Of a stretch of 64,000 bases of DNA, positions 30,312 to 54,324 are shown piece by piece; within the stretch, counting starts at the first letter, position 1, and each line of letters starts with the position of its first letter. A model generated the notes under the pieces. The model had not been told where the DNA came from. It made no database searches and saw only the letters and a program-made list of their open reading frames with translations. This DNA is from an uncultured Candidatus Binatia bacterium. Lineage in GTDB: Bacteria > Desulfobacterota > Binatia > UBA9968 > CAXXLF01. A program made the position numbers and the translations under genes. Location: contig OZ244621.1 in the NCBI GenBank assembly GCA_965218425.1, positions 1,152,001-1,216,000 on the forward strand. The letters run 5' to 3'.

Positions 30312-30500
30312 GTGAGACTCGCGTATGTTTGAAGTCCCGGACCTAGGGTCGGCGCGCGGTGTCATTCGACACGTCGTCGAAGCCCGGTGTGGCGGTTTCA
30401 TGGGGCGTTTCCTGAAACTAACGGAATGGGGGAACGAATGAGATTGCGGGGGTGCTCGCAGTTCGAACTGAGACAATACCAATATGAAGGAGGCAGTACG

Positions 30501-32384
30501 ATGTTTATCCCCCAAATTGGGTTCTTAGCCAAATCAAAAAATGCAAGTGCTTCCAGTGTCTTGTGGGCGCTTGTTTGTGTTTTCATGCTGTCCGGTTGCG
30601 CAGGGGGGGGAGGGGGAGTCACCCTCATGCCACCGCCTACGACACCGCCTAAGCCGGTGGACCCAACGCCGGGCTTGCCGCTCCCTTCGGGGCATGGGTT
30701 GATGGCAGGCCAGATCACGGTGGCGGCGGGGGCATCGGAAGAGCACGGCAATGTTGTGGTGACGTGTCCCGCGGGCGGCGGTGCGTGCGCGGTGACGGTG
30801 GCGGCGGACGGCACGGCGGTTTACGACAGGACGGGCGGCACGCCCACTTTCATATTTGCACATTGGACATACGAGCGGGACAACCCTACAGCGGAGGACT
30901 TGCTGGATCACTGGAACAAACCGGAGCAGTTGCGCACAGCATTGGGGCTGTCAGTGGTTGATGCCGCGGACATCGCCGACCGAAAGAACGCTCTAACGGA
31001 GTTGCTCAATTCGGCCGGAGGCGATGCAGCCGAGACCGGGACCCGGCTCCGCAACGTTCGGCCGGAGGATGTCGAGATCATCGGCGAGCGGAACGGAATC
31101 ACCTACGGGCGGTGGACGGGCGGTCCGGCCGGAACCTTCAACATCGATTTTGACTACAGATTCGCTCCCGAGGCCACTCAGGAACAGCGGGCGCGGATAG
31201 AACGGGCTGGCAAGTCCTGGTCTTGGCGTCTGGATGACGAATCGCGGAGATTTACGGTCGAAGCTGGTCAGCAGGTAGCGCGCAGCAGGACGATCGACGG
31301 GGTTCCGGTCGAAGAACTGCGAGTGGACGAAGACGTAACAACAGATGGCTTGGTGATCTTCGTTGACTTCCACGGTGGCACCCGGCGAAGCAGGGGCGGA
31401 CCCAGCATCTCGAGCCGAAGCGCTCGGGAGCAAGGCGACTTCCACCCCTACGCCGGTAGCATAAGAATCGGGACACCCCGCTTCGATGAAGTTTCCGAGA
31501 GAGGCAACCTCCGGCTGACCGGCCTTCTCGCCCATGAGATCGGGCACGTGATGGGAATCGGGTCAACCCTGAGACGAGACCCCTTCGTTGCCCACGTAGA
31601 CGAGGCGGCATATACCTTTACCGGGCCCAACGCCGTGGCAGAGCATGGCGGGCCTGTCCCGTTCCAATGGCTGGACAACAACCGTAATTCAGTTCCGCCA
31701 CGCACCCCAGGAGCGAGCGTGGATTGGGTACATATAGGCCCATGCGGTTCCGTCATGTCCTACTGCCGTCACGAATACGACATATATGCTCCCACCGAGC
31801 TGGACTTCGCATTCCTCAAGGATATCGGCTACGAAGTCCTTGATCCAAGTGTCGCGGAAGAGCCGGAGATTTACGGGTATGGGGCTTGGGGCCGCTACAG
31901 CGCATGGGGCGCGGGCGTGGAGCGTACCATCACCCATGACGCAGACATCCGTGGCAGCTTCAAGGATCTCGATACCCGAGACGCCCTCCATGCCACAGCA
32001 GACGCCTTCGGCTCAGCTCCCACCACGCCACTAACCGACAGCATCCAAGGCACCGCCACCTGGTCCGGCTCCCTCTTAGGCGTGGACATCGGCCAACCCA
32101 TGCTGCCGCCGGTGTTCGGCAACGCGGAGCTCAACGTGGACCTGGCCACTCTTAGGGGTTCCGCCCAGTTCCGTGACCTCACAGTGCACGTGGACAGCGT
32201 TTCCACCGCGTTCCGCGCTCCTGAGCTGCAATACAGCATCAACGTTAACGGCAACACTTTCTCCGACGCCGCGGGCCATGTCCAGGGCGGATTCTTTGGC
32301 CCCAATCATGAAGAGATGGCGGGTGTGTTGGATGACAGGGCTGCGGCTGTTAGCTTGCTGGCGGGATTTGGCGGGAGGCGGTAA
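30501..32384 (+). CDS. Lipoprotein: zincin metalloprotease plus C-terminal TbpB-like beta-barrel
   Basis: Lipobox LSGC, Gly/Pro linker, HEIGHVMG, HIGPCGSVMSY, GFFGPNHEEMAGV. Confidence 0.8.
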   Translation: MFIPQIGFLAKSKNASASSVLWALVCVFMLSGCAGGGGGVTLMPPPTTPPKPVDPTPGLPLPSGHGLMAGQITVAAGASEEHGNVVVTCPAGGGACAVTVAADGTAVYDRTGGTPTFIFAHWTYERDNPTAEDLLDHWNKPEQLRTALGLSVVDAADIADRKNALTELLNSAGGDAAETGTRLRNVRPEDVEIIGERNGITYGRWTGGPAGTFNIDFDYRFAPEATQEQRARIERAGKSWSWRLDDESRRFTVEAGQQVARSRTIDGVPVEELRVDEDVTTDGLVIFVDFHGGTRRSRGGPSISSRSAREQGDFHPYAGSIRIGTPRFDEVSERGNLRLTGLLAHEIGHVMGIGSTLRRDPFVAHVDEAAYTFTGPNAVAEHGGPVPFQWLDNNRNSVPPRTPGASVDWVHIGPCGSVMSYCRHEYDIYAPTELDFAFLKDIGYEVLDPSVAEEPEIYGYGAWGRYSAWGAGVERTITHDADIRGSFKDLDTRDALHATADAFGSAPTTPLTDSIQGTATWSGSLLGVDIGQPMLPPVFGNAELNVDLATLRGSAQFRDLTVHVDSVSTAFRAPELQYSINVNGNTFSDAAGHVQGGFFGPNHEEMAGVLDDRAAAVSLLAGFGGRR

Positions 32385-33281: not shown

Positions 33282-34118
33282 CTATATGTCGTTGTCGGGT
33301 TCTTTGGGTGGGTTATCGGAGAGATGGGTGTCCGTTGTGGACGGCCGCTCGGGCGATGGCTCCTCTTGAGAGACCTTTTTCTTTGGCGTCCGTTTTTTTT
33401 TCGGGAGCGAAATCCTGACCTGCTCAAGTTCAGATAGCGCGGCATCGTTCAGCAAACGTCGTATCCCGGCGAGGATGTCTTCCGGGGGCAACGCGATCCG
33501 ATAGTCTCGTCGGATCTTGTGCCGAATGGCACTGATGACGGGCTCGCAAAGTATCGCCCGGAGCAGGCTGCGGGGGTCGAGAACTTTTGTTTTGCGCCAC
33601 AACTCGTCCAACGCTCCTCGTCGGATATTTCGATGGGACAGGAGTTCCAGTCCATCGGCAATCACGGACATCTCGGACGTTACAAAGTCCCACGAGTAGA
33701 TGAGTTGGGTCTGCGGAGGCTGCTCGAATAAGATGTGATAGAGCCGCCACTCTTTAGAGTTCGTGAGGAGCATCCATTCGCAACCCGCGTTGATAGCATA
33801 GGACACGGCTTGACGAATGTGTTTCGATCCGAGCTCGACGTTAACCCTCTTGATCTCCACCACGATTGCCGGCTTCGCGTTGTCGGTGCCATCTACGCAT
33901 ATAGTGAAATCCATGTGCTCTGTTTCACCTGCGCCGCGCACCGCTTTTTCACGAGAGAGGTGCTTGAAGGGGTCGTACCCCATAAGGAGTTCGAAAACCC
34001 GCTCTACACGTCTCCTGGTTTCCGCCTCGTTGCAATCAAGTCGTTCCGCCTCTTGGATCATGTGCTGGGTGTCGACGATGTTACGCCGGAGAACCTTGTC
34101 CACAGACTTTCGTTCCAT
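33282..34118 (-). CDS. HsdR_N-like stand-alone PD-(D/E)XK nuclease
   Basis: NEAETR, MGYD, DF...VEIKR, RQAVSYA, W.LLTN..EW.LY. Confidence 0.8.
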   Translation of the reverse strand: MERKSVDKVLRRNIVDTQHMIQEAERLDCNEAETRRRVERVFELLMGYDPFKHLSREKAVRGAGETEHMDFTICVDGTDNAKPAIVVEIKRVNVELGSKHIRQAVSYAINAGCEWMLLTNSKEWRLYHILFEQPPQTQLIYSWDFVTSEMSVIADGLELLSHRNIRRGALDELWRKTKVLDPRSLLRAILCEPVISAIRHKIRRDYRIALPPEDILAGIRRLLNDAALSELEQVRISLPKKKRTPKKKVSQEEPSPERPSTTDTHLSDNPPKEPDNDI

Positions 34119-34419
34119 TTGGAATGCCTCCTTAAGCAGCATAAATTGACCGAATTTCAGGGCCGCTCATAAAACCATCCTCTGCATTGAATCGCTACTT
34201 ATTTATTTTCTGAGATTGTACTCGCCAAGGAAGCGTCAGTAAAGAGGTCAAATCTTTTGTTGACAAATAACATCTTCCAGATTCTCCAGCCGCCTCCAAA
34301 ATCTTCTATCTGCCTCACGCTTTAAGTGAATCCCATGGCACGCCCAGCCCACTGCACCGCAACTCTTCACTCCATACTCCCTGGCTGCTTCCACCAACGT
34401 CATGTCGCTTGGCCTCTTC

Positions 34420-38744: not shown

Positions 38745-38963
38745 ATGGTCGGAATGGAGGGACAGAAAGTGAGAAAAACGCTACCGCCACATCGTGTATC
38801 AGTGAGTTTCCCGCCGGAGTTATACGAGACTTTGGAAACGGTCGCGCGGCAGAAAAAAGTGTCGGTGGCGTGGGTCGTACGTGACGCGGCTGAGAGGTAT
38901 GTCGCTGAGCAATGGCCCCTGTTCGCAACAGATGACAGGGACCGATATGAACGATACAGATGA
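38745..38963 (+). CDS. Ribbon-helix-helix (CopG-like) regulator of the R-M operon
   Basis: RVSVSFPPELYETLETVARQKKVSVAWVVRDAAERY. Confidence 0.85.
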   Translation: MVGMEGQKVRKTLPPHRVSVSFPPELYETLETVARQKKVSVAWVVRDAAERYVAEQWPLFATDDRDRYERYR

Positions 38964-39762
38964 CGAATATTTGCGGATCGTACTTGATGCGATTCGAGTC
39001 TGTGCGCACTACAAGCCGAAATTCGGTCAGGGAGCGAAGGGCGGTGGTTTGACGTTGGAACAGTTCCGTGACCTCTATCAGGGAGACGCCTTCTATAGCT
39101 GGTTCGGGTTGGATAACCCGATGATGTACGCGGCACACAAGGCTGCCGGAGGCATGACGAGTGTGTACCGGCAGATCGGAATTGGGTGCGAGAGGTTGTT
39201 TCGCAGGGTGGTGAAAGATTCTTTCGAATTGTCAGAAGAAGATGTGACCTGGTCGTATCAGGTGACGTTGCCAAGTGGACGGAAGCGAACACTGTATCTA
39301 GACGGGCGGGTACCTCTTGAGAAGATCGGCAACAAAGACAAACGGGAGCGTTTCCGTGGGTGGATGAGGGATTCTGCGAAGATGCTGGATGTTGAACAGA
39401 AGGTATTCGAGAGCTTGACGGGCACGATTTTTGAGATCCGGCAGGGTTATAAGAGCAAGGACTCGAAACGGCAGAATGCCGATATCGCCAACGCTGCCAC
39501 GGCCTACACGAAAGGGTATTTTCCTTGCGCAGTGATCTTGTCGGGACAAATCGACAGCGATGTGCTTTTGCGGTACCGTGCCGAGAAATGGTCGGTTGTG
39601 ACAGGGATTGTCGGTGCAACAGACCCGCTGATATCGACATATGACTTCATGCGGAATGTCATTGGATATGACTTATCGGCGTTCTTTGAACGGAATAGTT
39701 CCACGCTTCGCGAGGAGATCGACACCATTCTGATAGCCCTTTTAGCCCCGGAGGCGACATGA
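38947..39762 (+). CDS. Putative Type II restriction endonuclease
   Basis: LDG...FEIRQGYKSKDSKRQN PD-(D/E)XK-like; lies between regulator and MTase. Confidence 0.7.
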   Translation: MNDTDDEYLRIVLDAIRVCAHYKPKFGQGAKGGGLTLEQFRDLYQGDAFYSWFGLDNPMMYAAHKAAGGMTSVYRQIGIGCERLFRRVVKDSFELSEEDVTWSYQVTLPSGRKRTLYLDGRVPLEKIGNKDKRERFRGWMRDSAKMLDVEQKVFESLTGTIFEIRQGYKSKDSKRQNADIANAATAYTKGYFPCAVILSGQIDSDVLLRYRAEKWSVVTGIVGATDPLISTYDFMRNVIGYDLSAFFERNSSTLREEIDTILIALLAPEAT

Positions 39763-41006
39763 GTGTAGTTGCCAGAGAAAAACTTCGCCAAAGAGCGGAC
39801 TATACGCATAAGTTCAACGCAAAGACGGGGCGGCATGGCTGGTTACGGCTGACACCTGCGTACTCGGTGAAGATTGTTGAAGAGCTTATGGACCAGTACG
39901 AAGAACCGTTGCGCGTGCTGGACCCGTTTTGTGGAACGGCGACGACAGCGCTGAGTGCGGCGTATCACGGGCACGAAGGCGTGACGACGGATATCAACCC
40001 GTTCCTGGTCTGGCTCGGCCAAGCGAAGATGGCGCAATACTCTGGTGCCTCGATAGTTTCGACACGTCGGGCATGTGCACGGGTGGTTGAGTCGGTGAAA
40101 CGGGGAGCGGTTGAGCCGGTGAAAGCGCCGCCTATTCATAACATTGAAAGATGGTGGTCGCCGGAAGCGCTGGAGTTTTTATGCACACTGAGGGCCGGTA
40201 TCGAAGCAGAAAGTAGGTACAATTCGCCGGAAAGGGCGTTTCTGCTGGTAGCGTTCTGTAGAACTCTGATCGAACTTTCGAACGCGGCTTTCAATCACCA
40301 ATCCTTGTCTTTTAAAGATGACGGGCAATTGCATCTCCAGCTCGATATCGACATGAGGCATGTGTTTAGCGAAGACGTGCAGTTCGTGTTGGAAGGTGCG
40401 GGGGAGAATCCGGAAGGAACGGGAAATGTAGTTTTCGGTGATTCCAGGAAGCTGCCGGGGGTAGTAGACGGCTCCTTCGATTTGGTGATTACGTCTCCGC
40501 CATATGTAAACCGGATGTCGTACATCCGTGAGCTGCGGCCGTACATGTATTGGCTCGGATTTCTGAATAACGGTCGGGATGCTGGCGAGCTTGACTGGAC
40601 GGCAATCGGTGGCACATGGGGGGTAGCAACAAGCAGACTGATTGATATGGAACGTCCAGGGGAGCCGTTTAAGCACCCGCTGCTCGATGAGGCATTGAAC
40701 GGGATAGCGCATCACGACAACAAGAGCGGGAAGATACTGGCAAGTTACGTGGCGAAGTATTTCGATGACATGTGGGAGCACTTTAATTCTCTAATCCCCG
40801 TGCTGAGCGAGGGCAGTGAGGTGCATTACATCGTGGGGAATTCCACGTTCTACGGTGTGCTCCTGTCGGTCGAGAGGCTATACGCGGCGATGCTTGAACG
40901 CTTGGGGTTTAAAGGGGTCGAGTGCCGCGCGATACGTAAGCGGAATTCAAAGAAAGAGTTGTTTGAGTTCGACGTTTCGGCGCGATGGATCGGGCGGAAG
41001 CCATGA
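39759..41006 (+). CDS. Amino-DNA methyltransferase (N4-C type, alpha motif order)
   Basis: Motif I VLDPFCGTAT before motif IV ITSPPY; ATGA overlap with REase. Confidence 0.88.
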   Translation: MSVVAREKLRQRADYTHKFNAKTGRHGWLRLTPAYSVKIVEELMDQYEEPLRVLDPFCGTATTALSAAYHGHEGVTTDINPFLVWLGQAKMAQYSGASIVSTRRACARVVESVKRGAVEPVKAPPIHNIERWWSPEALEFLCTLRAGIEAESRYNSPERAFLLVAFCRTLIELSNAAFNHQSLSFKDDGQLHLQLDIDMRHVFSEDVQFVLEGAGENPEGTGNVVFGDSRKLPGVVDGSFDLVITSPPYVNRMSYIRELRPYMYWLGFLNNGRDAGELDWTAIGGTWGVATSRLIDMERPGEPFKHPLLDEALNGIAHHDNKSGKILASYVAKYFDDMWEHFNSLIPVLSEGSEVHYIVGNSTFYGVLLSVERLYAAMLERLGFKGVECRAIRKRNSKKELFEFDVSARWIGRKP

Positions 41007-41081
41007 AGACGACTACGGATATGTAGTGGGAACAGTTAACGGATGAAGTGAAAGCAAAGAGTGATAAGCGATGTATCTTTG

Positions 41082-41588
41082 ATGAATAGGGAAGCGAGCA
41101 ACGAAAAGAGAGGAAGCGCAACGGCTCAGCCGTACGGTAGGCAGGCCGCGTTGCTTACGCTCGGGATCGCTCCAGTGATTTTTTCCAGTGAGCGAGTGCG
41201 GATTGGGCGCCTCGATCCGGAAGAACACGGGCTCATCAGGGATCTTCGTCTCGAACATCGGGGAACACATGCATTTCGCTTCGATGCCAGGGACATGAGG
41301 ATCGCGAATATCGGTCTCCGGCCGGATGTCGCGCCAATGGGGGAGATTGAAGAGGTTGCGGTCGGGAAGCACTTGTTGCTGCTGGCGGTGGCTATCGAAC
41401 ACCAGCTCTGGCACTGGCTGTCAGGCAGTCGGAAAATACTGCATCGCTTCCACCCGTTGATCTGTCTTGGCAACCGGGACCGGCTGTTGACGAAGGCGTT
41501 ACAGGAAGTCGGCATACAGTCGCCGGATACGCGACTTGATGTTGTCGCCAAATGGTCATTCGGTTTGCGTTGTGGGGTCAGACCTTGA
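41082..41588 (+). pseudogene. Truncated prokaryotic Argonaute N-domain (long-B / RsAgo-like)
   Basis: Colinear resemblance, recalled by eye, to the RsAgo N-terminus; cut at module B (41570). Confidence 0.55.
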
Positions 41589-42437: not shown

Positions 42438-42515
42438 GTATTTAATTCCCTTTCAATGTAGTCGAGAGGGTCGAATGCATCGTTTTAGCTCCGGCGGATT
42501 GATGTGGCAGGCGGC

Positions 42516-43769
42516 ATGAGTATTGGTAGAAACACGCAAACCGAGTGCAGACCGAGGGACGCTGTCTATCTGGACTATGCCGCAACGACGCCTGTCGACA
42601 CGCAGGTCATTGCGGTGATGATAAGGTATCTGGGGTTAGAGGGGATCTTCGGTAACGCTGCGTCGCGGTCACACCGCTTTGGACGCGAAGCCGAAGAGGC
42701 AGTGGAGATGGCACGAGAGCAAGTAGCCGAACTCATCAATGCTGATCCATCTGAGATTGTTTGGACATCGGGGGCTACTGAGTCCGTCAATTTGGCGATC
42801 AAGGGCGTAGCGCATGGACATGCCGACCAGGGCAAACATCTTGTCACTTCGAGTCTGGAGCACCATGCTGTTCTGGATTCATGCGATCAATTGGCCCGCG
42901 AAGGATATGAAATCACTTATGTTGACCCTGACCGGGACGGCCTGATCTCCCCAGAGCATGTGGAACAGGCCCTGAGAGACGACACCATTCTTGTCTCCCT
43001 GATGCATGTGAACAATGAAGTCGGGACCATCACCGACATCAAAGCGATAAGCGAAATAACCCGTGCCCGCGGGATCGCATTCCATGTGGACGCCGCACAA
43101 GGCGCGGCGCGTCTATCCCTCGACTTGCGCTCGATTCACGCGGACCTTGTTTCCCTTAGCGGACACAAGATGTACGGGCCAAAAGGTATCGGAGCGTTGT
43201 ACGTGCGTCACCGACCCCGCGTCCGGATCGAACCTCAGATACATGGCGGAGGTCAGGAACAGGGTATCCGCTCGGGGACGCTTGCGACACATCAAGTGGT
43301 CGGCATGGGCAAGGCCGCACAATTGACGTGTGAACGCCGAAAGCAAGATGTCGAAGCTGTCGCCGTGCTCGATCACCGCTTGCTGGAACGTCTTGCAGAT
43401 ATTGAGCACACCTTTATAAACGGCAACGAAACGCATCGTGTCTCAGGAATTGCAAACGTTGGCTTCGCATGCGTCGAGAGTGAGTCCCTCATGATGTCGT
43501 TGAAGGATGTTGCCATCTCATCCGGGTCGGCTTGCACCTCGTCCCACGTTGAGTCGTCCCACGTCTTGCGATCGCTAGGTTTGCCCGACGACCTTGCGAG
43601 TTGTTCAGTCCGCTTCAGCCTCGGACGATTCACGACCGAGCAGGAAGTCGACTTTGCTGCAGAGCGTGTGAGGGAATCCGTAAATGCGCTACGCCAATTG
43701 TCTCCCCAATGGAGATCGCTCCACCGAAACATTCGTAAAACTAAACCAAATCGCGTTCGTACTGATTAG
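42516..43769 (+). CDS. dndA: Cysteine desulfurase (DndA/IscS)
   Basis: [26 protein letters not shown]; immediately upstream of dndC. Confidence 0.88.
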
Positions 43770-43775
43770 TATGAC

Positions 43776-44969
43776 ATGAACGAGCACATCCAATTTAGAA
43801 ACATCGCAAGCGGCGACCATGGTAACATCTTCCATGTTGTCAAGCGTCTTGACGTCGCCATGGACGCCATTCGAAGAGAATACCTGCGAAAGCACGTCGA
43901 TCCGTGGGTGCTGGCCTATTCGGGCGGAAAGGACTCGACCCTGCTTCTTCAACTAACGTGGGAGGTGTTGGCATCGCTCCCTGTCCGTGATCGACGGCGT
44001 AAGATCTATGTCGTGGGCAACGACACGCTTGTCGAGTCGCCGTTGGTGATCCAGCATCTCAGAACCACTATGGCGACGATCAAGGATGCTGCTGCTGCGG
44101 ACGGACTGCCAATCGAGACGCAGATCACGAGGCCGCACATCGACCAGACTTTCTGGGTAAACGTGATTGGGCGCGGTTACATTCCCCCGACGCGGAACTT
44201 TCGGTGGTGTACCGATCGGATGAAAATCCTTCCGACTACCCAGCTCCTTGACGGACTCGTTCGATCACACAAGCGCGTTGTGCTACTGGTGGGAACGCGA
44301 AAAAGCGAGTCCGAGAATCGGCGCCGCAACATGACGAAGCATGGCGTTTCTGCAACCAAGATGAATCCTCACAGTTCCGTGGAACGCTGTCGAATGTTCG
44401 CGCCGCTGGCCGAATTCGAAGACCAGGACGTTTGGCTAATCCTGATGCAGCGAAAGCCACCGTGGGGCGGCTCGCATCGAGATCTAATCACGCTGTATCG
44501 TAATGCTGGAGGTGGAGAGTGCCCGTTGGTGCTGTCCAAGGCCGATGCCCCGTCATGCGGAACGACCTCGCCCAGGTTCGGTTGCTGGACATGTACGGTC
44601 GTAAAGAAAGATCGGAGCTTGCGAGGCTTGATTGATTCCGGTCACGAACACGCAGAAGTCTTCGCACGTCTCTTCGACTTTCGTGAGTGGCTGGTCCAAC
44701 TGCGTGAAGACAACGCAAATCGCCAGCGAGTGCGGAGGGACGGAAACTCCAAATCTCGTGCAGATGGAACCCTCGTGATGGGACCCTTCACGCTTGATGT
44801 TCGCGAACGTATCCTGCGCCGACTAAAGGTGCTCGAAGACGATACTAGGCAGCAACTCATTTCCGAATCTGAGCTTGATGTTATCAAAGACATCTGGCGT
44901 TGCGATCAGGTTCGAGAAGAGTGTCGCACTGCGTTACGCAACACGTTCGCCGACGGAGCCTCAGTTTGA
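43776..44969 (+). CDS. dndC: DNA phosphorothioation sulfurtransferase DndC (short form)
   Basis: AYSGGKDS, FWVNVIGRGY..P...FRWCTDRMKI, GTRKSES, GECP, RFGCWTC. Confidence 0.93.
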   Translation: MNEHIQFRNIASGDHGNIFHVVKRLDVAMDAIRREYLRKHVDPWVLAYSGGKDSTLLLQLTWEVLASLPVRDRRRKIYVVGNDTLVESPLVIQHLRTTMATIKDAAAADGLPIETQITRPHIDQTFWVNVIGRGYIPPTRNFRWCTDRMKILPTTQLLDGLVRSHKRVVLLVGTRKSESENRRRNMTKHGVSATKMNPHSSVERCRMFAPLAEFEDQDVWLILMQRKPPWGGSHRDLITLYRNAGGGECPLVLSKADAPSCGTTSPRFGCWTCTVVKKDRSLRGLIDSGHEHAEVFARLFDFREWLVQLREDNANRQRVRRDGNSKSRADGTLVMGPFTLDVRERILRRLKVLEDDTRQQLISESELDVIKDIWRCDQVREECRTALRNTFADGASV

Positions 44970-46756
44970 CAACTCAGCGCCAGACGGTCATTGAGGCGGA
45001 GGCGATGTTGTTTTCGGACCTTTTCCCCCAGGGCCGATTCGCCGTCCCGTGGCACCAGCGCTACTACGATTGGAAGCCGAGCGATGTCCGAGCACTTCTC
45101 TACGATATCGATGAAGCGATCAAGGAAAAGCGCGAGTGTTACTTTCTGGGTGCGGTGATGCTGGTTGAAGTCGAACCTAGAAAATGGGAGATCAACGACG
45201 GCCAACAACGAATGGTAACAATATCGCTGATCTGTGCCGCACTTTGCCGACGATTCGCTCGGGAAGAAAGGGGTTCGCAACGTGAAGGGCTCGCGCTGTG
45301 CATGCTGTTCGATCTGAACACTAATAGCGTCTCGACTTCAGACGACGTGGAACGCTACACTCCCCGGATTTCCCCACCGCAGAACGACGCGGCGCGGTAT
45401 CACCAGTTGATCCGTGGCAACACGATTGGAACCAACGGCAAGCTCACCGCCGCATGGGCAGAGATTGAAAAATTCTTCACTCCGATGAGTCAGGAAAAGT
45501 CGAAGGAGTATTTCGACTTTCTTTACAAAAAGTTGGAAATTACCTGCTTGCAGGTTCCGTCAAACATAGATTCGAACGCGGTGTACGAGACGCTTAACTA
45601 TAGAGGCAAGAAACTCGACGATTTGGACCTGATCCGTAATCATCTGTATTCGCACTTCAACGTGACCGGCGAATCCGAGAGAAGGCAATCGATACATGTG
45701 AATCTTGAGAGGATCCGCACAACGATTGCCAGCACCACAAAGGCATCCGAATACTTGCGTTGTCACCTGCAATGCCGGTTCGGCTTCCTTAGCAAGGACA
45801 ACTTCTACCGCGACGTACGTTCTGCCATTAAAACACGGAGGAATAATGAGCGCGGGCCGACGGGTTCCCAGGCCGACTACGTCTTCCACCTAACGAAACA
45901 AATCTCTGCTCCTGAGTCTCTGCAACTCTTCCAGACGATGACGGCAAAAGGCCCAGAACCGGAATTTATCAGGGCGTTCGAAAAGGACTCTGGGACAACA
46001 AATTCACCGAGGAATCTAGAAGTTTTTTTTCGGGAGTTGGGTGCATATAAGGTCACTCAGCCCCTAATTTTCGCCATGTTGACCAGGTACATACGTGAAT
46101 CGGACGGCGGAACAAAGAGGCAGATTGCAAGGTCCGTCAATAAAAACCTGAGTCGCTTGGCGACATTCGTCCTCAGAACGGCATTTGTTGCACCTAAGTT
46201 TGAGCCTTCGCATTTCGAAACAAAGTTTTCCAACTATGCCAAACACATCGCAACCGCCAACGTCCTTCCTAATGACAAATTTGCTGATTTTCTAAAGGAA
46301 TGCGATGCTTCAGAACACGGAGTGCTAGATGACTCCAAGTTCCAAAACGCTATGGTCGAGGCGACGATGAAGGACAAAAAAAAGATCAAGCGGTTTCTGC
46401 TCGGGATTAATCGCAACATACAACACGGTGCACGGCTATTGAACGAGCAATCCTGTAACGTCGAGCACATACTGCCAGAATCTTCGCAACACTGGAGTGC
46501 TTGGACCAGCTTCAAGGATGTCGATGGGAGCGAGTGGGTTAATAGAATCGGGAATCTGACCCTGGTGGGACCGGCGGACAATCAGCCTGGACCGAAGTAT
46601 AATGGTGATTTTGCGAAGAAGCGCGAGAGCTATCGAGGCAGTGAAGTCGCGCTTACCCGTGAGCTGAGCAAACACGTTGATTGGACCCCTACCACCGTCG
46701 AAGCGAGACAGCGGGAGTTGGCGAAACGAGCCGCGCGTGTTTGGACGTTCGTTTGA
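44966..46756 (+). CDS. DUF262 + DUF1524 protein (GmrSD/SspE-like)
   Basis: P..QR.Y.W, FLG, DGQQR, YETLNYRG, VEHILP, IGNLTL; TTGA overlap with dndC stop. Confidence 0.9.
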   Translation: MTTQRQTVIEAEAMLFSDLFPQGRFAVPWHQRYYDWKPSDVRALLYDIDEAIKEKRECYFLGAVMLVEVEPRKWEINDGQQRMVTISLICAALCRRFAREERGSQREGLALCMLFDLNTNSVSTSDDVERYTPRISPPQNDAARYHQLIRGNTIGTNGKLTAAWAEIEKFFTPMSQEKSKEYFDFLYKKLEITCLQVPSNIDSNAVYETLNYRGKKLDDLDLIRNHLYSHFNVTGESERRQSIHVNLERIRTTIASTTKASEYLRCHLQCRFGFLSKDNFYRDVRSAIKTRRNNERGPTGSQADYVFHLTKQISAPESLQLFQTMTAKGPEPEFIRAFEKDSGTTNSPRNLEVFFRELGAYKVTQPLIFAMLTRYIRESDGGTKRQIARSVNKNLSRLATFVLRTAFVAPKFEPSHFETKFSNYAKHIATANVLPNDKFADFLKECDASEHGVLDDSKFQNAMVEATMKDKKKIKRFLLGINRNIQHGARLLNEQSCNVEHILPESSQHWSAWTSFKDVDGSEWVNRIGNLTLVGPADNQPGPKYNGDFAKKRESYRGSEVALTRELSKHVDWTPTTVEARQRELAKRAARVWTFV

Positions 46757-46901: not shown

Positions 46902-47111
46902 ATGAAAATATCAAAAGATGAAATTGAACTCATATCAAAGATCGCTGCCGATCACGAAATCAAAGGTGATGTGATCGTACAACTTCTTGAGCTTGAAGAG
47001 GAATTTCCAGATGTTCACGCGTGGGGAGCACGTGCAAATCTTAAACGTAAAATTGCTCAAACACTTGAGCAAGCAGCAAATCAGGCGAACCCGACCGATC
47101 CTAATCGATGA
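46902..47111 (+). CDS. Small Dnd-associated helical protein (resembles a detached DndC C-terminal tail)
   Basis: ELISKIAADH...QLLELEEEF...RANLKRKI; ATGA overlap with dndD. Confidence 0.65.
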   Translation: MKISKDEIELISKIAADHEIKGDVIVQLLELEEEFPDVHAWGARANLKRKIAQTLEQAANQANPTDPNR

Positions 47112-49144
47112 TCTTCAAACGCATACGCCTTGAGAACCTGTTTGCCTATAAGGGTATTCAGGAAATTGATCTTACGGGGTGCGGTAAGGGAAGGAACATT
47201 ATTCTTATTTCTGGCCGCAATGGTACAGGTAAAACAAGCTTTATCAATGCTGTCAAACTTCTATTCCTTGGCGCTAACGATCAGCGTCTGCGACGTGTTG
47301 GCTTCCCGCCTACGACTCTTGCCACAGGCCAATTTGTTCGGGGTGTTCCGGGCGTGTGGTCCGGTTTGTTCAACACTCAAGCGCGACGCGACGATTCTGA
47401 ACGAGCGTCAATATCAATCATTTGGGAAGAAGAAGATGGAGTTGAGTTTGAGGCCCGACGAAGCTGGCGTTTGAATGGTCCTAGCTACGAAGAGAACCTC
47501 GATCTATACAAAAACGGAGAAGCGTCAAATCCAGACGACGTCTCCTTGCAGCTTGCAGAAAAACTGCCGCACGACTTTGTGCCGTTCTTCTTTTTTGACG
47601 GCGAACAAATTCGTGAACTTGCCGAAGCGGAGGAGGATATCACTGCAAATGAGATCGAACGCATATTGAACCTCTCCTTTGTGGGCGAAATAGAACAGGG
47701 CGTGTCGGAATTCGTACGGCAGCGTCGCCGTGAGGCGCTACCCGAAGAAACGCAGGTTCGAATACGACGTGCCGAGGGAGAACTTGCCACGAAACAGGCA
47801 GAAAAAGCGGTGGCGGAAAGACGGCTGATGAATTTTCAAGAGGCCATCCAGAAGACCGAGTCCCGCAAACGTGAACTGACGGTCGAGAGGGACGAATTAC
47901 GTACCGGTGTTTCCGACGCGGACCGACTGCTTCTCGAACAACGCCTGGAGACGTTGGAATCGCAAAGATCGGATTTGGCCCGTAAGATCAGCGAGACTCT
48001 GCCGCCAGAGGCGCCGTTCCTCGCAAACCTTAAACTAACACTCCGCGCATACGGGGATGTAGAAACCGTCGTATCGGCACGAGCCGCTCAGGAACTTGGG
48101 AGGCTCGACACTCTACGTCGAGAACTGCCCCACCGGCTGCTGGATCAGGAGCCACACCCTGAAACGCCGCTCGACCCATCCCAGATTGAACACTTACGCG
48201 GGAAGCTCCTATCGCTCATAGAAGAATATACTACTCTGGAGACAGCAGATCAGTTGCCATCCTATCTCCGAACACTCGATCTTGCTAGCGCCCAGAGTTT
48301 GCGCGACCGTTACCTAATTTGGGTTCGCGAGGGCGTAAGACACAGACGTTCCATCGCCACAGAGTTACAACAGATACGCAAGCTTACTGTAGAGGCGGAA
48401 CAAACGACGGAAGAACTAGCCCGGGTATCTGTCGCGTCGAAGGGCCACCTTCAACGCTTTCGCGAGATATCCAAGGAGCTTGACGAACTCGATAATGAAT
48501 TAGCCGCTAAGCACGAGGATGTCGGAAAGGTTGAGGCCGAAATCTCTCAATGCGCGCGCACCATATCCGAAACCCGTAAGCAAGTCGCCGCGCTTGAAGA
48601 AGAACACGAACAAGCCAGAATGACTGGCCAGACTGTCCAATACGCAAGACATGTCGAGGCAGTTCTGCACGAATATAGAGCACGCCAAAGAGAGTTGAGG
48701 CGCACCTCTGTCGAAAAACGCATTAACGAGAAACTGGGTATTCTTCTAGCCGAACACGGACAAATCGGGCGCGTAAACCTCAGCAACCGGTTCATAATGA
48801 CGTATTATGACAAACATGATCAAAAAATTGGGCGCGTAAGTATTTCTGCCGGCATGAAGCAGCTCGTCGCAACAGCATTACTGTGGGCACTAAAGGACGA
48901 ATCCGGTAAGAAGATACCTCTGGTCATCGATACACCACTTGCTCGCATCGACCGCCGAAATCGCGCGCGTCTTTTGGACTCCTATTACCCTAATGCGGGG
49001 GAGCAGGTCATTGTGCTCCCCACAGACAGCGAGATTGATGACAGCCAGTTACTGCATCTCGCTCCACATATTGCCAAAAGGTACCGGATAGAGAATGTCG
49101 ACGGCGAAAACGCCAAGATTGTTCTGGATCAAACCAATGTCTAA
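47108..49144 (+). CDS. dndD: DNA sulfur modification SMC-like ATPase DndD
   Basis: GRNGTGKT, FFFFDGEQI, long coiled coil, ISAGMKQ, VIDTPLARID, YYP....QVIVLPTDSEI. Confidence 0.92.
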   Translation: MIFKRIRLENLFAYKGIQEIDLTGCGKGRNIILISGRNGTGKTSFINAVKLLFLGANDQRLRRVGFPPTTLATGQFVRGVPGVWSGLFNTQARRDDSERASISIIWEEEDGVEFEARRSWRLNGPSYEENLDLYKNGEASNPDDVSLQLAEKLPHDFVPFFFFDGEQIRELAEAEEDITANEIERILNLSFVGEIEQGVSEFVRQRRREALPEETQVRIRRAEGELATKQAEKAVAERRLMNFQEAIQKTESRKRELTVERDELRTGVSDADRLLLEQRLETLESQRSDLARKISETLPPEAPFLANLKLTLRAYGDVETVVSARAAQELGRLDTLRRELPHRLLDQEPHPETPLDPSQIEHLRGKLLSLIEEYTTLETADQLPSYLRTLDLASAQSLRDRYLIWVREGVRHRRSIATELQQIRKLTVEAEQTTEELARVSVASKGHLQRFREISKELDELDNELAAKHEDVGKVEAEISQCARTISETRKQVAALEEEHEQARMTGQTVQYARHVEAVLHEYRARQRELRRTSVEKRINEKLGILLAEHGQIGRVNLSNRFIMTYYDKHDQKIGRVSISAGMKQLVATALLWALKDESGKKIPLVIDTPLARIDRRNRARLLDSYYPNAGEQVIVLPTDSEIDDSQLLHLAPHIAKRYRIENVDGENAKIVLDQTNV

Positions 49145-49147
49145 GGA

Positions 49148-50647
49148 ATGACCATGGACAAATTTTATTTCGGACGAGATGAACGAGCTTTCATGTTCCG
49201 CGTGATAGAAAAAGGAATGCTGCAAAAGCCAGGCCAAGCTCCACAATGGTGGGTTGTACGCCTCGCCTTGGCAAAATCTTTACAATTCGAAGAGCCTCCC
49301 AACGATGATAAGTTTGCGCCGCCACCGCATGTCCAAGGCGGAAGCGAGTTGCACCTTGATCAGATTACCGGAAAAGATAAGGGCGGATTGGAAGATTATA
49401 CACGCGCGTTGAAGCTTTTGCTGTCGGCACGTCATGGTGCCGACCTTATAAGCAATGATGCACTTTTTGAAGAGACACTACACAGACATATACGCAGAGG
49501 TCTTCATGAAATAAAAATTTCGTGGCGTGAAAATTCTGATTTCTTTGATTATTTGTATCAAGATTTGTTCTTTGAGAAGTTTACAAACGAATCCGGTGAG
49601 ACAAGCCTCGGCGATATATCAAATGAAGACCTGACTTTAGCACTGCATAAGATAGGGGTACGCGTTGAGGTTGAACAAAAACTTGATGGCCCAAGATTGT
49701 CGCGCTTCAGACTTGTTTTATCCGGTGTCGACGATTACGACAAACTACGAAGAAACATCGACGATCTCAACTTTATTCTTGGTCTGAGTGCTAACAGCAT
49801 ATCGTTTGAATTGGGTGGGGGCGAACGCAGGATTGTCTTGGACATCCCGCGACCAATGTCCATCTGGCACTACATAAAATGGGCTGAGGCTCAGAAGGCT
49901 CTTCAGGAAACGTCCTACCGCTTGCCTGTCTGTTCGGCTACCGACGTTCTGGGCGTTCCCATTTCTTTTGATTTGGCCTCCGCGCCCCATCTCTTGATAG
50001 GCGGCACCACTGGTAGCGGGAAAAGCATCTGTGTCCACGCGATCATATTGTCGCTGATTGTGTGCGTTGAGCGCCCGGAGTTGGTTCTCGTTGACCCGAA
50101 GGCTGTCGAGTTGACGGCGTATACGAACTACGGAAATCTGAGAGGAGGCCGTGTCATTACAGATATGGCTGATGCGAGGGCTGTTTTTCAAGAACTTGTG
50201 AAGACGATGGACCAAAGGCAAAAGGACTATATGTCTATCGGCGTGCGCGACATCGACGAAGCTCGGAAAAAGGGTAGCGATGACCGCAGCATTGTGGTGG
50301 TCGTCGACGAACTGGCAGACCTTGTCCTAGGAAACCCAGAGGTTGTCGGTCCACTTGTCCGTCTTGCCCAAAAGGCGCGCGCTTTTGGCATTCATTTAGT
50401 GTTGGCCACACAGCGCCCAGAGGCAGGAACATTTCCCGGCCTGTTACGGTCCAACATACCAAGCCGTATCGCGCTGACTGTCCAGAAAAATTCCGAGTCA
50501 CGGATCATCCTGGATGAGGGAGGCGCGGAGAACCTGCTCATGCGGGGCGACATGCTTGTACGCATGGTCGGTCAGAAGACAATCCGCGCGCATGGCGTCA
50601 GCGTGTCGCAGTCGGATATCGAAAGGGTTCTTGCCGAACATGGCTAA
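49148..50647 (+). CDS. DndE-like domain fused to FtsK/SpoIIIE ATPase
   Basis: N-terminal WVVRLALAKSL..GSEL..QITG..HIRRGL (DndE-like); C-terminal PHLLIGGTTGSGKS, VDELADL, ARAFGIHLVLATQRP; no TM or gamma domain. Confidence 0.8.
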   Translation: MTMDKFYFGRDERAFMFRVIEKGMLQKPGQAPQWWVVRLALAKSLQFEEPPNDDKFAPPPHVQGGSELHLDQITGKDKGGLEDYTRALKLLLSARHGADLISNDALFEETLHRHIRRGLHEIKISWRENSDFFDYLYQDLFFEKFTNESGETSLGDISNEDLTLALHKIGVRVEVEQKLDGPRLSRFRLVLSGVDDYDKLRRNIDDLNFILGLSANSISFELGGGERRIVLDIPRPMSIWHYIKWAEAQKALQETSYRLPVCSATDVLGVPISFDLASAPHLLIGGTTGSGKSICVHAIILSLIVCVERPELVLVDPKAVELTAYTNYGNLRGGRVITDMADARAVFQELVKTMDQRQKDYMSIGVRDIDEARKKGSDDRSIVVVVDELADLVLGNPEVVGPLVRLAQKARAFGIHLVLATQRPEAGTFPGLLRSNIPSRIALTVQKNSESRIILDEGGAENLLMRGDMLVRMVGQKTIRAHGVSVSQSDIERVLAEHG

Positions 50648-51815
50648 CGAAGAGCGCAATATCCACATCCGCGACTTCCGTCTGGTTAAGCTCACACTCG
50701 TAGATGTTGGCCCATTTCGGGAGTATTATGAAATAGACTTTACTGGCGCACCGCTATCCACAGGTGCCGAGAAGGGCAGTGAAACCGCGTGCGAACCAGC
50801 AAATTTTTTCTTGTTACTTAGCAAGAATGGTTTCGGCAAAACCACGGCCCTTGAGGTGATCACGCTACTTTTTGATCTGCTCGGCAAATCTGAAGCTTCC
50901 CGTTTTGGCCATTACGACCTCGATGATGGCACGGGTAAGATACAGGCAGATTTTCGTGCTAACTGGTCTATCGACGACTCGCGCTCACCCGTCCTTCTTT
51001 CGATCTGGGCGGGAAGCGAAGGACCCGTTTATGTTTGGACCAAAAGTGATATCGAGTCTGTTGCGAATGCCTCTGAGTGGGCCAAGGTAGGCTTTGTACG
51101 TTCGCGATCATCAGACCGGATAGAGCTTGGGCCAGGAACAAACGAACTTGGCAAGATCCTCGCAACGGCTATCCGGCACGCGGTCGGCACACCGCCGCCA
51201 GCGCTGTTCGGAGAGGGTTTTGATCTGCCGACAGTGCTCTTCTTTCCAGCCGACCGCGCCGTAAGGCGCCCGCCACTTGCGGGCCGTGCAGTGTCGAGGC
51301 CGGAGCACTGGGGATATCGACCGTCCTTTCGGTTTGAAGTCGACGGGACTGAGTGGGCGAACTCCCTTGACAATTTGTTGGTTTGGCTCTCGTGGCTGGC
51401 GGACGACAGAGACCGTGTCTTGCGAGAATACGTTGAGAAAACCGTATTTATGGATGGCAGAAAAGGATTACTGGAAGTAGACCGTGAGCGACTATCCGCC
51501 AATGTCAAGACACCCGACGGGGTACATCCGCTCTACAACCTCAGCCACGGTGAAAGGCAGGTGTTGCAACTTCTTGTACGCACACCGGTCCACATGACGA
51601 ACAGCACGATTTTGCTGATCGATGAAGTCGAAATGCACCTGCATCCAAAGTGGCGGGTCACACTATTGGAAACGCTCAAAGTGCTTGTCAAAGATTTTGA
51701 GGGCCTTTCAGTAATTGTGACAACCCATGAGCGCGAACTCATACAGGTGTTTCAACATGAAGTGCCCGAAGAGGGCTTAGTGAAAGGTGGATTCTTGATC
51801 GAGCAGGACTTGTAA
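50640..51815 (+). CDS. ABC-type AAA_21/AAA_15 ATPase (AriA/OLD-like)
   Basis: KNGFGKT, LSHGERQ, LLIDEVEMHLHP, TTH; overlaps upstream stop. Confidence 0.88.
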   Translation: MANEERNIHIRDFRLVKLTLVDVGPFREYYEIDFTGAPLSTGAEKGSETACEPANFFLLLSKNGFGKTTALEVITLLFDLLGKSEASRFGHYDLDDGTGKIQADFRANWSIDDSRSPVLLSIWAGSEGPVYVWTKSDIESVANASEWAKVGFVRSRSSDRIELGPGTNELGKILATAIRHAVGTPPPALFGEGFDLPTVLFFPADRAVRRPPLAGRAVSRPEHWGYRPSFRFEVDGTEWANSLDNLLVWLSWLADDRDRVLREYVEKTVFMDGRKGLLEVDRERLSANVKTPDGVHPLYNLSHGERQVLQLLVRTPVHMTNSTILLIDEVEMHLHPKWRVTLLETLKVLVKDFEGLSVIVTTHERELIQVFQHEVPEEGLVKGGFLIEQDL

Positions 51816-52690
51816 TGCCGAACTTAAGAGAGCTGGGGGACAGCAATGCTGTTGATAATAAGTATGTCGACCGGATCGTGTTTTATGTAGAAGGTGAGGA
51901 TGATAAAAGTCTTCTGACTGTCTACTTGTTGAAGCATTACGTCTCTAAAGTTGAAGTCAAAACGCCATCAGCATTGGGAAGCGGTTACCTGGGGGTAATT
52001 CAACGGGTTAGCCAAGAGCGAGGTATGAACGGAAAAATCTTCGGCATAGTCGATGGTGAAGCGCTTTTGCCCTTGGGGCATGTTTCGATATACAAAGAGA
52101 TGTTTGGAGGATGGAATTGGATCACCCTTCCTAAATTTGACGGCATTTACTTTATTCCGTGTTGGGAGATAGAAAACCTTCTCTATATTAGAGATATTTT
52201 GCCACAGACGCTTATTGCCCTTCAGCCTGTATCGAAGCTCTCGCGTTTGACTGAAAGATCTGTCGAAAACATCATCCTGACGGAGGCATTCCGACTTTCA
52301 GAGTTATCTTCGTTGAATTTAGCACTTTTAGCAGAGTCGTATGATACAATAAGAGCAGAAACAAAATCGAACATTGAGAAAAGACATGATTTACTTACGG
52401 AAATTGGGACGACGATCGCCTCGTTAGATAAGGCTCACTTAGTGAAAAATGGGTATGATAATTGGAGGCAATTTTTTCGCGAGCTCCTTCGAGGGAGCCG
52501 AACACGAGACAAAATATACGATGAATTTATTAGTCGTGTTGACGGGAAGGCATTATCTATAAGATTGAGTAAAAAATTAAATGTTCAACCCGACATTCGT
52601 TCAACACTCGCGTACAATTTTTCCAATAATAAGAAAACAATGAAAATTATTGACGCGCTATTGGAAACGGTCAATCGGCGCGTTCCGTGA
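51815..52690 (+). CDS. DUF4435/TOPRIM-like protein (AriB-like)
   Basis: FYVEGEDD, GIVDGE, WEIENLL; TAATG coupling to ATPase. Confidence 0.72.
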   Translation: MPNLRELGDSNAVDNKYVDRIVFYVEGEDDKSLLTVYLLKHYVSKVEVKTPSALGSGYLGVIQRVSQERGMNGKIFGIVDGEALLPLGHVSIYKEMFGGWNWITLPKFDGIYFIPCWEIENLLYIRDILPQTLIALQPVSKLSRLTERSVENIILTEAFRLSELSSLNLALLAESYDTIRAETKSNIEKRHDLLTEIGTTIASLDKAHLVKNGYDNWRQFFRELLRGSRTRDKIYDEFISRVDGKALSIRLSKKLNVQPDIRSTLAYNFSNNKKTMKIIDALLETVNRRVP

Positions 52691-52902
52691 ATTGTGGCTA
52701 ATCATCTGAAATTGAAGTATGCTTCAATAATCGTTACGCAAGCCGTTGCTCGTATTAACCTAAATTTTGCAGTTGATGCTGGTGCACAGCTATCGTTTGG
52801 AGGGTTTTTCAACCAGTTGGTGCAGTCTGAAGGGGCGTGAGCCATCGCTGTCGACCCGGTTGTCGACCTCCGGGATATTCTTTAACGCTTCGATCAGGAA
52901 TT

Positions 52903-53014
52903 AGTGTCGGGCACACTTTTTTGCTATTCTGGGTTTCCTTCCCTTTCGGATTCCAGCTTGAATTGTACCAATTCTCTCTTGCAATGTCCTGTCCATTTGG
53001 ACGCGGTGTTCTAA
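52903..53014 (-). repeat. Module A copy 7 (right part)
   Basis: Core TTCCCTTTCGGATTCC; same break GGACGCGGT|GTTCTAA as copy 8. Confidence 0.8.
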
Positions 53015-53232
53015 TTGGCCCTCTCCGACAGAAAGAACATTACCGTGAGGCGGCAATTAGCTACCCCAAGCAAACGGGCCGGCCGTCCCGCGAGACTGTG
53101 CCGTTATTCCAATCACTTGACACTGGGGTAAGTGCAGAATCGTGGCAACACGTAACTGCAATCTGGACGGGCCGGAGATCCGAAAGCTAGTTTCACGACG
53201 TGGAGGCTAGGCTGCCTCACAGTGTTTAGGCT

Positions 53233-54324
53233 TTATCGATTAGCATTCCGAAGTTCGCGATGAATGATCCGGTGACAGTTTGCGCATAGGCACATCAGGT
53301 CTTGCAGTTGCGTATTGTGTCCGGGCGGCATGTCGGCTAACGGAAGTTTGTGATGCACATCGATGCACGCATCACCGATATCGATCCCATAGACTTCTGC
53401 CGGATCTAGTCCGCAGCGTTCGCATAGCAATCGGCCGTGTTCACTTATGAACGCCGCCTTTTTTGCCGGTGCAAGCCCCCATCCCCGCTCGCGTTGAAGG
53501 TGGATTACATACTTCGGGTGCCCTTCGATCCAATCGCGTTCGTCCGGGTTTGGCGGTACTTCAACGGGTTGGACCGGCCCGTCCTTCGGGACGATCCGGT
53601 ATCCGGCGGCGGTGATCGCTTTGAAGCAGGGGGTTCCGATGCCACCCACAAAGTGATACGGCAAAACCTCGAAGCCGAGAGCTTCGGACACCGCTAGACC
53701 GAACACGGCCTTAGGTGCAAGGCGCGACCCGTCCTCGGTAATAACGTCATAGTCAGTGGATTCACCGAACGAATGCTCGCCTGAACCGAAAAGAAGCCGT
53801 TGCACCGCACGCCAGATGTGTTCGGCAGATACCGGCTGCAACTCTGCAGCCCGTAGCCTTTTGCGTCGGTTTGAGGCTGCGCCAGTCTCGCCCCAGCCTG
53901 CAATCCGGGCGATCCGCTCGCCGGGGGGATTTCCGGTAAATGCGAAACGAAGCCTTTTTGTGGAATTTCCACGGTTGTTTCGGTTGTTCGGATCACGACC
54001 GACCGCAGCCATTCTGTTCGAGAATCTGGTGAACAATTCAGACGGCGAAACCTGAGTGTCTTCGGGAAGGAGTATTTTTCTTTCCTCCATTGGCAAATTT
54101 TGGACACGACTGCTGTCTACCCACACTCCGACCAACGTCAGGTCCGATTGATCGATTCGCTCGAGAAGAATACGCAGTGCCTCACCATATTTAGTGTTTT
54201 GTGCGTTGGTGGTGTCTTTGGTTCCGCCGCGCGAATGCAAAATTAGTTTTCCTTCCTGTACTTCGAAATGAGCATCCATTGGAGTACCGGAATCATTGTG
54301 GAATTTGTATAAGGTTACCGACAC
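53233..54324 (-). CDS. McrA-like HNH endonuclease with N-terminal accessory domains
   Basis: EG...H..RER; CERC...IDVHH...CLCANCHRIIH; middle YDV...APKAVFGLA...FVGG (ScoMcrA head-like). Confidence 0.85.
   Translation of the reverse strand: MSVTLYKFHNDSGTPMDAHFEVQEGKLILHSRGGTKDTTNAQNTKYGEALRILLERIDQSDLTLVGVWVDSSRVQNLPMEERKILLPEDTQVSPSELFTRFSNRMAAVGRDPNNRNNRGNSTKRLRFAFTGNPPGERIARIAGWGETGAASNRRKRLRAAELQPVSAEHIWRAVQRLLFGSGEHSFGESTDYDVITEDGSRLAPKAVFGLAVSEALGFEVLPYHFVGGIGTPCFKAITAAGYRIVPKDGPVQPVEVPPNPDERDWIEGHPKYVIHLQRERGWGLAPAKKAAFISEHGRLLCERCGLDPAEVYGIDIGDACIDVHHKLPLADMPPGHNTQLQDLMCLCANCHRIIHRELRNANR

Follow-up and report, generated by a model that had tools for sequence, protein, structure and literature searches.

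Dnd systems modify no more than a part of their target motifs; how they find these, and which energy-driven step they need, is the question on which the locus described here bears. We report that a stretch of 64,000 nucleotides from an uncultured Candidatus Binatia bacterium (contig OZ244621.1; the whole stretch that was analysed is hereafter called the window) carries a gene that joins a DndE DNA-binding domain to a soluble FtsK-type motor, and the position of this gene within a DNA sulfur-modification operon was confirmed. Such a natural fusion of a DNA reader with a well-understood double-strand DNA pump provides a handle on target selection by Dnd systems. Our main reading, to which we assign a probability of roughly 55%, is that the open reading frame (ORF) supplies a variant Dnd phosphorothioate (PT) system with its DndE subunit, and that in this system the reader DndE and its tethered FtsK motor would work together as proposed below. 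Domain identities, the conservation of catalytic motifs, and gene order together with its conservation were established in the analysis. The genes of the operon, listed by their positions in the window, are as follows.

42504..43769, forward strand: dndA / IscS-type cysteine desulfurase (Pfam Aminotran_5, 1.5e-83)
43776..44969, forward strand: dndC catalytic core, 397 aa, without the C-terminal tail of long DndC (TIGR03183)
44900..46756, forward strand: GmrSD-type (DUF262 + DUF1524) nuclease gene (Pfam GmrSD_N 84 bits, GmrSD_C 78 bits)
46902..47111, forward strand: small protein, 69 aa, detached DndC C-terminal tail (NF005316)
47108..49144, forward strand: DndD-like ABC ATPase with coiled coil, here DndD' (TIGR03185, 293 bits, above cut-off)
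49148..50647, forward strand: DndE::FtsK fusion gene (DndE residues 1-140, linker, FtsK alpha/beta motor)
50640..51815, forward strand: AAA_21/AAA_15 ABC ATPase, 391 aa from the ATG at 50640 (Pfam AAA_21 58.9 bits, AAA_15 40.5 bits)
51815..52690, forward strand: DUF4435-like (Toprim-type) putative nuclease (Pfam DUF4435 26.3 bits, cut-off 27)

All eight genes, from dndA to the DUF4435-like gene, are open and tightly spaced. The stop codon of the small-protein gene overlaps the start of the DndD' gene (ATGA), three bases separate the latter from the fusion gene, the ABC ATPase gene, with its likely ATG start at 50640, shares eight bases with the end of the fusion gene, and the ABC ATPase and DUF4435-like genes overlap as well. 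A scan for promoters and terminators gave numbers near chance (16 vs. 9.6 and 15 vs. 14.4), and there are no tRNA genes in the window.

The fusion ORF (49148-50647, + strand) comprises 499 open codons (499 aa) and is located in the dndE position, as the original prediction had it, since it begins 3 bases downstream of a DndD gene (TIGR03185, 293 bits, cut-off 245.85). All motifs that had been named beforehand were recovered from the translation: RLALAKSL (residues 38-45), GSEL (65-68) and HIRRGL (114-119) in the N-terminal part, and GTTGSGKS (286-293), DELADL (387-392) and ATQRP (420-424) in the motor. In the AF2 model of the full-length protein (pLDDT 79.8) the DndE domain covers residues 1-140 and is followed by a linker (residues 141-154), an alpha domain (residues ~159-234) and a RecA-like beta domain that extends to residue 499. 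The linker has a pLDDT below 50 and is, judging from this model, disordered or flexible.

That approximately 140 N-terminal residues would be DndE-like was borne out, because Pfam, AF2/Foldseek and hhalign all point to the DndE fold. Specifically, the Pfam family DndE (PF08870) matches residues 29-123 with 25.1 bits, which is marginal relative to the cut-off of 25; it reached 27.7 bits in the scan of the whole host genome and scores between 21.3 and 33.1 bits in homologues of the fusion. Residues 1-150 modelled separately using AF2 (pLDDT 85.6, pTM 0.82) show a strand-helix-helix unit twice plus additional helices, and when this model was compared with the PDB using Foldseek, ranks 1 to 10 were all occupied by DndE chains (5wtu, 7x4e and 4lrv; probability 0.99-1.00, TM 0.62-0.68 by target). 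The corresponding E-values are modest (0.011-0.083, none ≤0.001), while the next listed unrelated entry has an E-value of 1.5. A profile built from nine N-domains and searched against the PDB sequences likewise had DndE (7x4e) as its top, weak, match (E 0.077). Moreover, hhalign of the N-domain alignment, which also held three fusions of a second lineage that are nearer to canonical DndE, against four stand-alone DndE proteins gave 97.9% and an E-value of 5.9e-13. On four lines of evidence together, drawn from sequence comparison and structure models, the N-terminus of the fusion is a DndE domain. It has the double strand-helix-helix fold and the pairing with DndD in common with canonical DndE (PDB 4LRV, 5WTU and 7X4E; PF08870); however, canonical DndE is a stand-alone protein of ~110-140 aa, expected to bind (nicked) double-stranded DNA and to be needed for PT, whereas here the domain is fused to a motor, and the sequence identity between the fusion N-domain and the solved DndE structures is only 12-15%. 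Other features expected of a DndE are also present, i.e., the operonic partner is a DndD-family ABC ATPase and the genome has DndC.

The second half of the prediction, a complete FtsK alpha/beta motor without membrane or gamma domain, agrees with what Pfam, AF2 and Foldseek each gave. Pfam FtsK_SpoIIIE matches the fusion with an E-value of 3.1e-36 (125 bits), and FtsK_alpha (PF17854) was matched in the fusion homologues of two genome contigs (L001 and L002). The top PDB matches of the full-length model are FtsK motor domains (6t8b, 2iut, 6t8g and 2ius; E 3e-24 to 3e-22, 32-34% identity over ~380 columns), and these outrank TcpA, EccC/EssC and HerA in the match list. The motor is a conserved part of the protein, as no variation occurs across 24 homologues (47-78% identity) in Walker A (G286-S293), Walker B (D387/E388) or T421-P424. 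No gamma-domain family was detected in the fusion by Pfam at E ≤0.01, and the protein ends ~10 residues past the beta domain, so there is no room for such a domain. FtsK motors in general are hexameric rings that translocate double-stranded DNA. Cellular FtsK (PDB 2IUS, 2IUT and 6T8B) shares the alpha and beta domains and the Walker A/B motifs with the fusion (32-34% identity) but has in addition a membrane domain, a linker region and a gamma domain that reads KOPS, all three of which the fusion is without. Hallmarks of an FtsK engaged in chromosome segregation are thus absent: the N-terminus is DndE and not a membrane anchor, and gamma is lacking. Reading of the sequence would fall to the DndE domain in place of gamma. 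In PADLOC the best-matching profiles for the motor are SspH, by its C-terminal motor (150 bits), and mad8.

The host genome, which is a single contig and 97% complete, has one match each for DndC, DndD and DndE, the last being the fusion, which was the only PF08870 match when the whole genome was scanned. We found no match for DndB and no second DndD or DndE in this genome, and the fusion is therefore its only candidate DndE. The dndA/IscS gene at the upstream end of the operon scores 578 bits with the NCBIfam IscS model and 418 bits with the DndA model, i.e., under the cut-off of 480 of the latter, and ~525 bits with PADLOC SspA/DndA. For the dndC core, the TIGR03183 score is 346 bits (cut-off 290.4) over profile positions 5-365 of 447, and positions 12-383 of 505 are covered in NF005316. 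For the 69-aa ORF there is a match, although a weak one (E 0.002), to positions 405-461 of NF005316, a model of long DndC; small proteins of this type match NF005316 in 4 of 8 cases and TIGR03183 in 2 of 8. Furthermore, the DndC proteins of L086, L112, L113 and L115-L118 end in a homologous in-frame segment, and in L109 such a segment is attached to a fragment of DndC. Because of these profile matches and the in-frame segment in other DndC proteins, we consider the small protein to be the detached DndC tail. The window and L001, L083, L084, L085, L091, L114 and L119 encode it in an ORF of its own. The short DndC (397 aa) was also considered as a truncation, which was rejected given that other loci, too, have a short core and a separate tail ORF.

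Between the dndC core and the tail ORF lies the GmrSD-type gene, which has its probable start at the ATG at 45005. In PADLOC it matches HEC-06 with 241 bits, and the SspE profiles cover its N-terminal part only. This arrangement is confined to the window, and there was no GmrSD match in the other 19 loci of the window's lineage (0/19). Downstream of the fusion, the ABC ATPase scores 57 bits with AriA and 55 bits with PtuA in PADLOC, and the DUF4435-like protein 27.9 bits with AriB. PARIS reportedly consists of AriA, an ABC ATPase, and AriB, a DUF4435 protein. The window therefore has an equal domain pair (AAA_21/AAA_15 plus DUF4435), but the PARIS profiles match only weakly here (AriA over the C-terminal part only, and DUF4435 itself just under the Pfam cut-off), and in contrast to PARIS the pair is welded to a Dnd operon. 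Among DUF4435-like homologues, three of seven reach PF14491 at E ≤0.01, while E26, D30, D80, E118, E120 and K245 are invariant in all seven, such that the Toprim-type acidic residues are kept.

Relatives of the fusion were identified using its N-terminal 251 residues as query. (A scan of genome contigs that used the full-length alignment returned mostly ordinary FtsK: of the 80 loci kept, 78 had a match confined to residues from 100 on, which left L001 and L002 as the informative ones.) The loci compared were derived from genome contigs (L001, L002), plasmids (L083, L084) and metagenome contigs (L085-L091); the plasmid search returned five records, two of them full-length, and the metagenome search seven loci. 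To these were added an evenly drawn sample of 400 genomes from the phylum of the L001 genome, where 12 further genomes matched and the surrounding stretches were compared. All N-domain matches in this sample (13/13) were in open frames of 502-574 aa. The same query gave no match in viral contigs, in 400 other genomes of the host's class (0/400) or in 400 other genomes of its phylum (0/400). Because matches were missing from both class and phylum, the cassette looks foreign to the host lineage. With a profile of the N-domain searched among 1.84 billion entries we obtained 225 cluster representatives at E ≤0.001, 105 of these at E ≤1e-10; among the best 150 of the 225, 67 are 440-560 aa long, and many of the shorter ones look like pieces of a fused protein. 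The second fusion lineage is also large.

Gene order was compared by BLASTP of stop-to-stop frames of all loci against the window proteins. L087 and L091 are near-identical and were counted once, which gives 20 distinct loci of the window's lineage, the window included. A homologue of the AAA_21 ATPase is found directly downstream of the fusion in 18 of these 20, and a DUF4435-like gene follows it in the same 18 (that of L085 was assigned by position and alignment and not by BLASTP). Within the evenly drawn sample this pair follows the fusion in 10 of 12 loci. The exceptions are L115, with DndC-DndD'-fusion followed by NUDIX and hydrolase genes, and L119, where the small protein, DndD' and the fusion are located amid housekeeping genes with no DndC within 7 kb. 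Moreover, DndC, mostly with the tail in frame, is situated directly before DndD' in 8 of the 12 sampled loci, and two more loci end at a contig edge. The conserved cassette thus consists of the dndC core, the DndC-tail small protein, the DndD-like ATPase, DndE::FtsK, the AAA_21 ATPase and the DUF4435-like Toprim protein. A canonical DndD-DndE pair adjoins the cassette in 4 of the 20 loci (L083, L084, L085 and L087/L091). In L083, L084 and L087/L091 the order is dndA-C-D-E, small protein, DndD', fusion, ATPase, DUF4435, whereas in L085 the canonical pair is convergent with the cassette; in these, i.e., on a Mesorhizobium amorphae plasmid and in three other loci, the cassette is beside a complete canonical dndA-C-D-E set. 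No second DndD/DndE pair was detected in the compared stretches of the 12 sampled genomes. L109 represents a partly decayed copy with a DndC fragment and a split ATPase gene. In the second fusion lineage (L088-L090) the N-domain is nearer to canonical DndE, and the modules are ordered dndC, small protein, dndD, fusion, without the ATPase/DUF4435 pair (L088 is too short to judge); the L090 module is flanked by integrase genes.

Fusions of this kind have been described. Rakesh, Aravind and Krishnan (NAR 2024; PMC10853773) report, with reference to Krishnan et al. [quoted passage not shown] As they are described there, the window shares with those fusions the DndE and FtsK-class motor in one polypeptide, the adjacent DndD-related ATPase, the PT neighbourhood and a motor related to DndH/SspH, and there is no essential difference. 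Since the fusion is already published, a claim of novelty for it is unsupported; the window is a further example of the described DndE-FtsK fusion system, with a function that is predicted. The main text of PMC10853773 makes no mention of DUF4435, the AAA_21/DUF4435 pair, PARIS, GmrSD or DUF262, and a link between DndD and DUF4435 was not found in the literature searched, the scope of which lay outside Krishnan 2020 and the supplement of Rakesh 2024.

A second precedent is DndEi, an extended DndE of Riemerella and other Bacteroidota with helicase and ATPase activity in its extra domain, as described in a review (PMC6435447). According to the same source, inactivation of the helicase abolished PT modification, and the GAAC/GTTC target had a stimulating effect on the ATPase. 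By its description, the DndEi protein from Riemerella anatipestifer (Zheng et al., J Biol Chem 2016, via PMC6435447 and PMC7464106) resembles the fusion in being an extended DndE with an ATPase/helicase domain needed for PT. DndEi is reported from Bacteroidota, whereas the named relatives of the window fusion are Proteobacteria among the matches listed; Riemerella is absent from the matches listed for the window fusion, and both Riemerella and Flavobacterium are absent from those listed for the second-lineage fusion of L089.

How might the fusion work? Most likely it assists the DndD-type ATPase in finding and preparing target sites, while ATP-driven movement or duplex opening would come from the FtsK ring. 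We infer every physical interaction and every activity of the cassette proteins in the following scheme. The DndE domain, which would act as a double ribbon-helix-helix reader of the sequence, would dock on the neighbouring DndD-like ABC ATPase, and the two would jointly search duplex DNA for their target motifs. As in FtsK itself, the motor part presumably assembles into a hexameric ring; it would then use ATP to move or locally open the DNA, upon which DndC, the detached tail protein and the cysteine desulfurase DndA would insert sulfur into the backbone. The AAA_21 ATPase and the DUF4435/Toprim protein may act as an accessory nuclease-type effector, and with them the cassette would function in defence, either abortively or in the manner of restriction-modification; the pair looks like an optional nuclease arm, and the L115 module without it is what would be expected if the pair is an add-on effector. 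The proposal made at the outset, that the motor may aid scanning or couple to downstream effectors, is consistent with the conserved ATPase/DUF4435 pair and with the published scanning model, in which a co-phylogeny argument presents DndD and DndE as a scanning core (PMC10853773). As the genome has no other DndD or DndE, DndD' and the fusion would have to serve modification here.

This last point bears on an alternative that we regard as unlikely, namely that the small protein, DndD' and DndE::FtsK are counterparts of PbeB, PbeC and PbeD and constitute a sensor, not a modifier. The trio would sense the PT status of DNA and direct the ATPase/DUF4435 nuclease against unmarked DNA, the FtsK motor taking the place of PbeA's SF2 helicase and the Toprim protein that of its HKD nuclease. 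The best PADLOC match of DndD' is indeed PbeC (335 bits, vs. 287 for DndD), which counts against our main reading. PbeABCD (Xiong 2019), as re-annotated in PMC10853773, is a similar set near dnd genes: PbeB is a small protein encoded ahead of PbeC, which like DndD' is an ABC ATPase of the DndD family, and a DndE cognate comes next. The sensor alternative also accommodates the ATPase/DUF4435 pair in 18/20 loci and the cassettes that follow a complete canonical dndA-C-D-E (the M. amorphae plasmid and three other loci); given the canonical DndD-DndE pair next to the cassette in those 4/20 loci, the fused pair there need not be the modifier. In addition, L119, lacking DndC within 7 kb, indicates that a DndD'-fusion pair can exist without sulfur chemistry nearby. 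However, neither the host genome nor the compared stretches of the 12 sampled genomes provide a second DndD/DndE that could do the modifying, DndD' passes the TIGR03185 (DndD) cut-off, and the small protein is a piece of DndC that is usually fused to DndC, which ties DndD' to the sulfur enzyme. PbeABCD has the HKD-SF2 helicase PbeA and a CxC-type ATPase; the window cassette has neither and instead has the fused FtsK motor and the ATPase/DUF4435 pair. DndD' has two Cys residues but no CxC motif, and no HKD nuclease or SF2 helicase family was detected in the ORFs neighbouring the fusion.

The motor could, on the other hand, serve mainly to engage invading DNA during transfer, replication or packaging and bring it to the nuclease, without aiding self-modification, a role that we find distinctly unlikely. 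Its closeness to the SspH C-terminal motor in PADLOC (150 bits) agrees with this, as does PMC10853773, which groups DndE-fused motors with some DndH motors and proposes that captured motors engage invading DNA. Yet modules without the nuclease partner retain the motor (L115, L119 and, in the second lineage, L089/L090), and the DndEi ATPase/helicase is reported to be necessary for modification itself (PMC6435447). Very unlikely, finally, is that the window copy is decaying or disabled, the GmrSD gene having split dndC from its tail and left the fusion gene intact but idle. A GmrSD gene between the DndC core and tail is seen only in the window and in 0/19 other loci, this foreign-looking gene might impair the system (a point that also weighs against our main reading), and a partly decayed copy does exist elsewhere (L109). 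Against this, all eight window genes are open and tightly spaced, and L001, L084, L085, L091 and L114 likewise encode core and tail in two ORFs, so that the split form is a normal state.

As the fusion itself has already been described, the window adds one more, slightly unusual example, whose local oddity is a GmrSD gene that separates dndC into core and tail. That the ATPase/DUF4435 pair is so constant a partner points to a restriction arm distinct from DndFGH. Beyond this, a broader interpretation, which we put forward tentatively and at somewhat less than even odds, is that the cassette (dndC core, tail, DndD', DndE::FtsK, AAA_21 and DUF4435) might represent a self-contained PT-based defence in which the FtsK ring would thread DNA and the PARIS-like pair would act as executioner, and that the GmrSD/SspE-like nuclease taken into dndC may possibly serve as a second PT-sensing effector.

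In one related locus (L084), NCBI annotates a gene product as "DNA modification system-associated small protein". This product corresponds to the C-terminal tail of DndC, which is encoded by a separate ORF in some genomes and fused to DndC in others. The following features of the window lie within or around the dnd cassette:

30387-32384 (+), 665-aa protein, C-terminal barrel TbpB-like
33282-34142 (-), HSDR_N-domain (type I restriction) protein
38881-41588, type II restriction enzyme and methyltransferase pair, then a 175-aa fragment partly matching a pAgo profile
44900-46756 (probable start 45005), GmrSD-type DUF262+DUF1524 nuclease gene
46902-47111, DndC-tail small protein
52837-53190 (+), unassigned 117-aa ORF
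53233-54324 (-), HNH protein with weak likeness to type IV methyl-directed restriction enzymes

The tail, or tail segment, was also found in L086 (1762-1971), L112, L113 and L115-L118. In the window, the GmrSD-type gene sits exactly in the gap between the DndC catalytic core and the detached tail ORF, and no GmrSD-type gene was seen in the remaining 19 loci with the cassette. Its predicted protein shares the DUF262+DUF1524 domain pair with the PT-sensing SspE, and matches the SspE profiles in its N-terminal part only.

The type II enzyme, which scores 268 bits against PADLOC REase_II, and the methyltransferase pair lie a short way upstream of the dnd genes. The fragment that follows them matches the pAgo profile over its first ~130 positions only. 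This region has the appearance of a defence island. Many ORFs neighbouring the HSDR_N and TbpB-like genes lack Pfam matches. On the 3' side, the 117-aa ORF and the HNH protein gene directly adjoin the cassette.

Further observations come from three other loci:

L109 7543-12974, partly decayed cassette copy
L119 8620-12470, three-gene module, small protein-DndD'-DndE::FtsK
L090 4014-11736, second-lineage module, dndC-small protein-dndD-DndE::FtsK

In L109 the ATPase gene is broken into two frames and the tail is joined to a mere DndC fragment. The L119 module, which is without DndC and the nuclease pair (AAA_21 ABC ATPase and DUF4435-like protein), is flanked by an adenylosuccinate synthetase gene and a His-tRNA-synthetase-like gene. 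Finally, given the integrase genes on both sides, one on each, the L090 module looks like a small mobile island.
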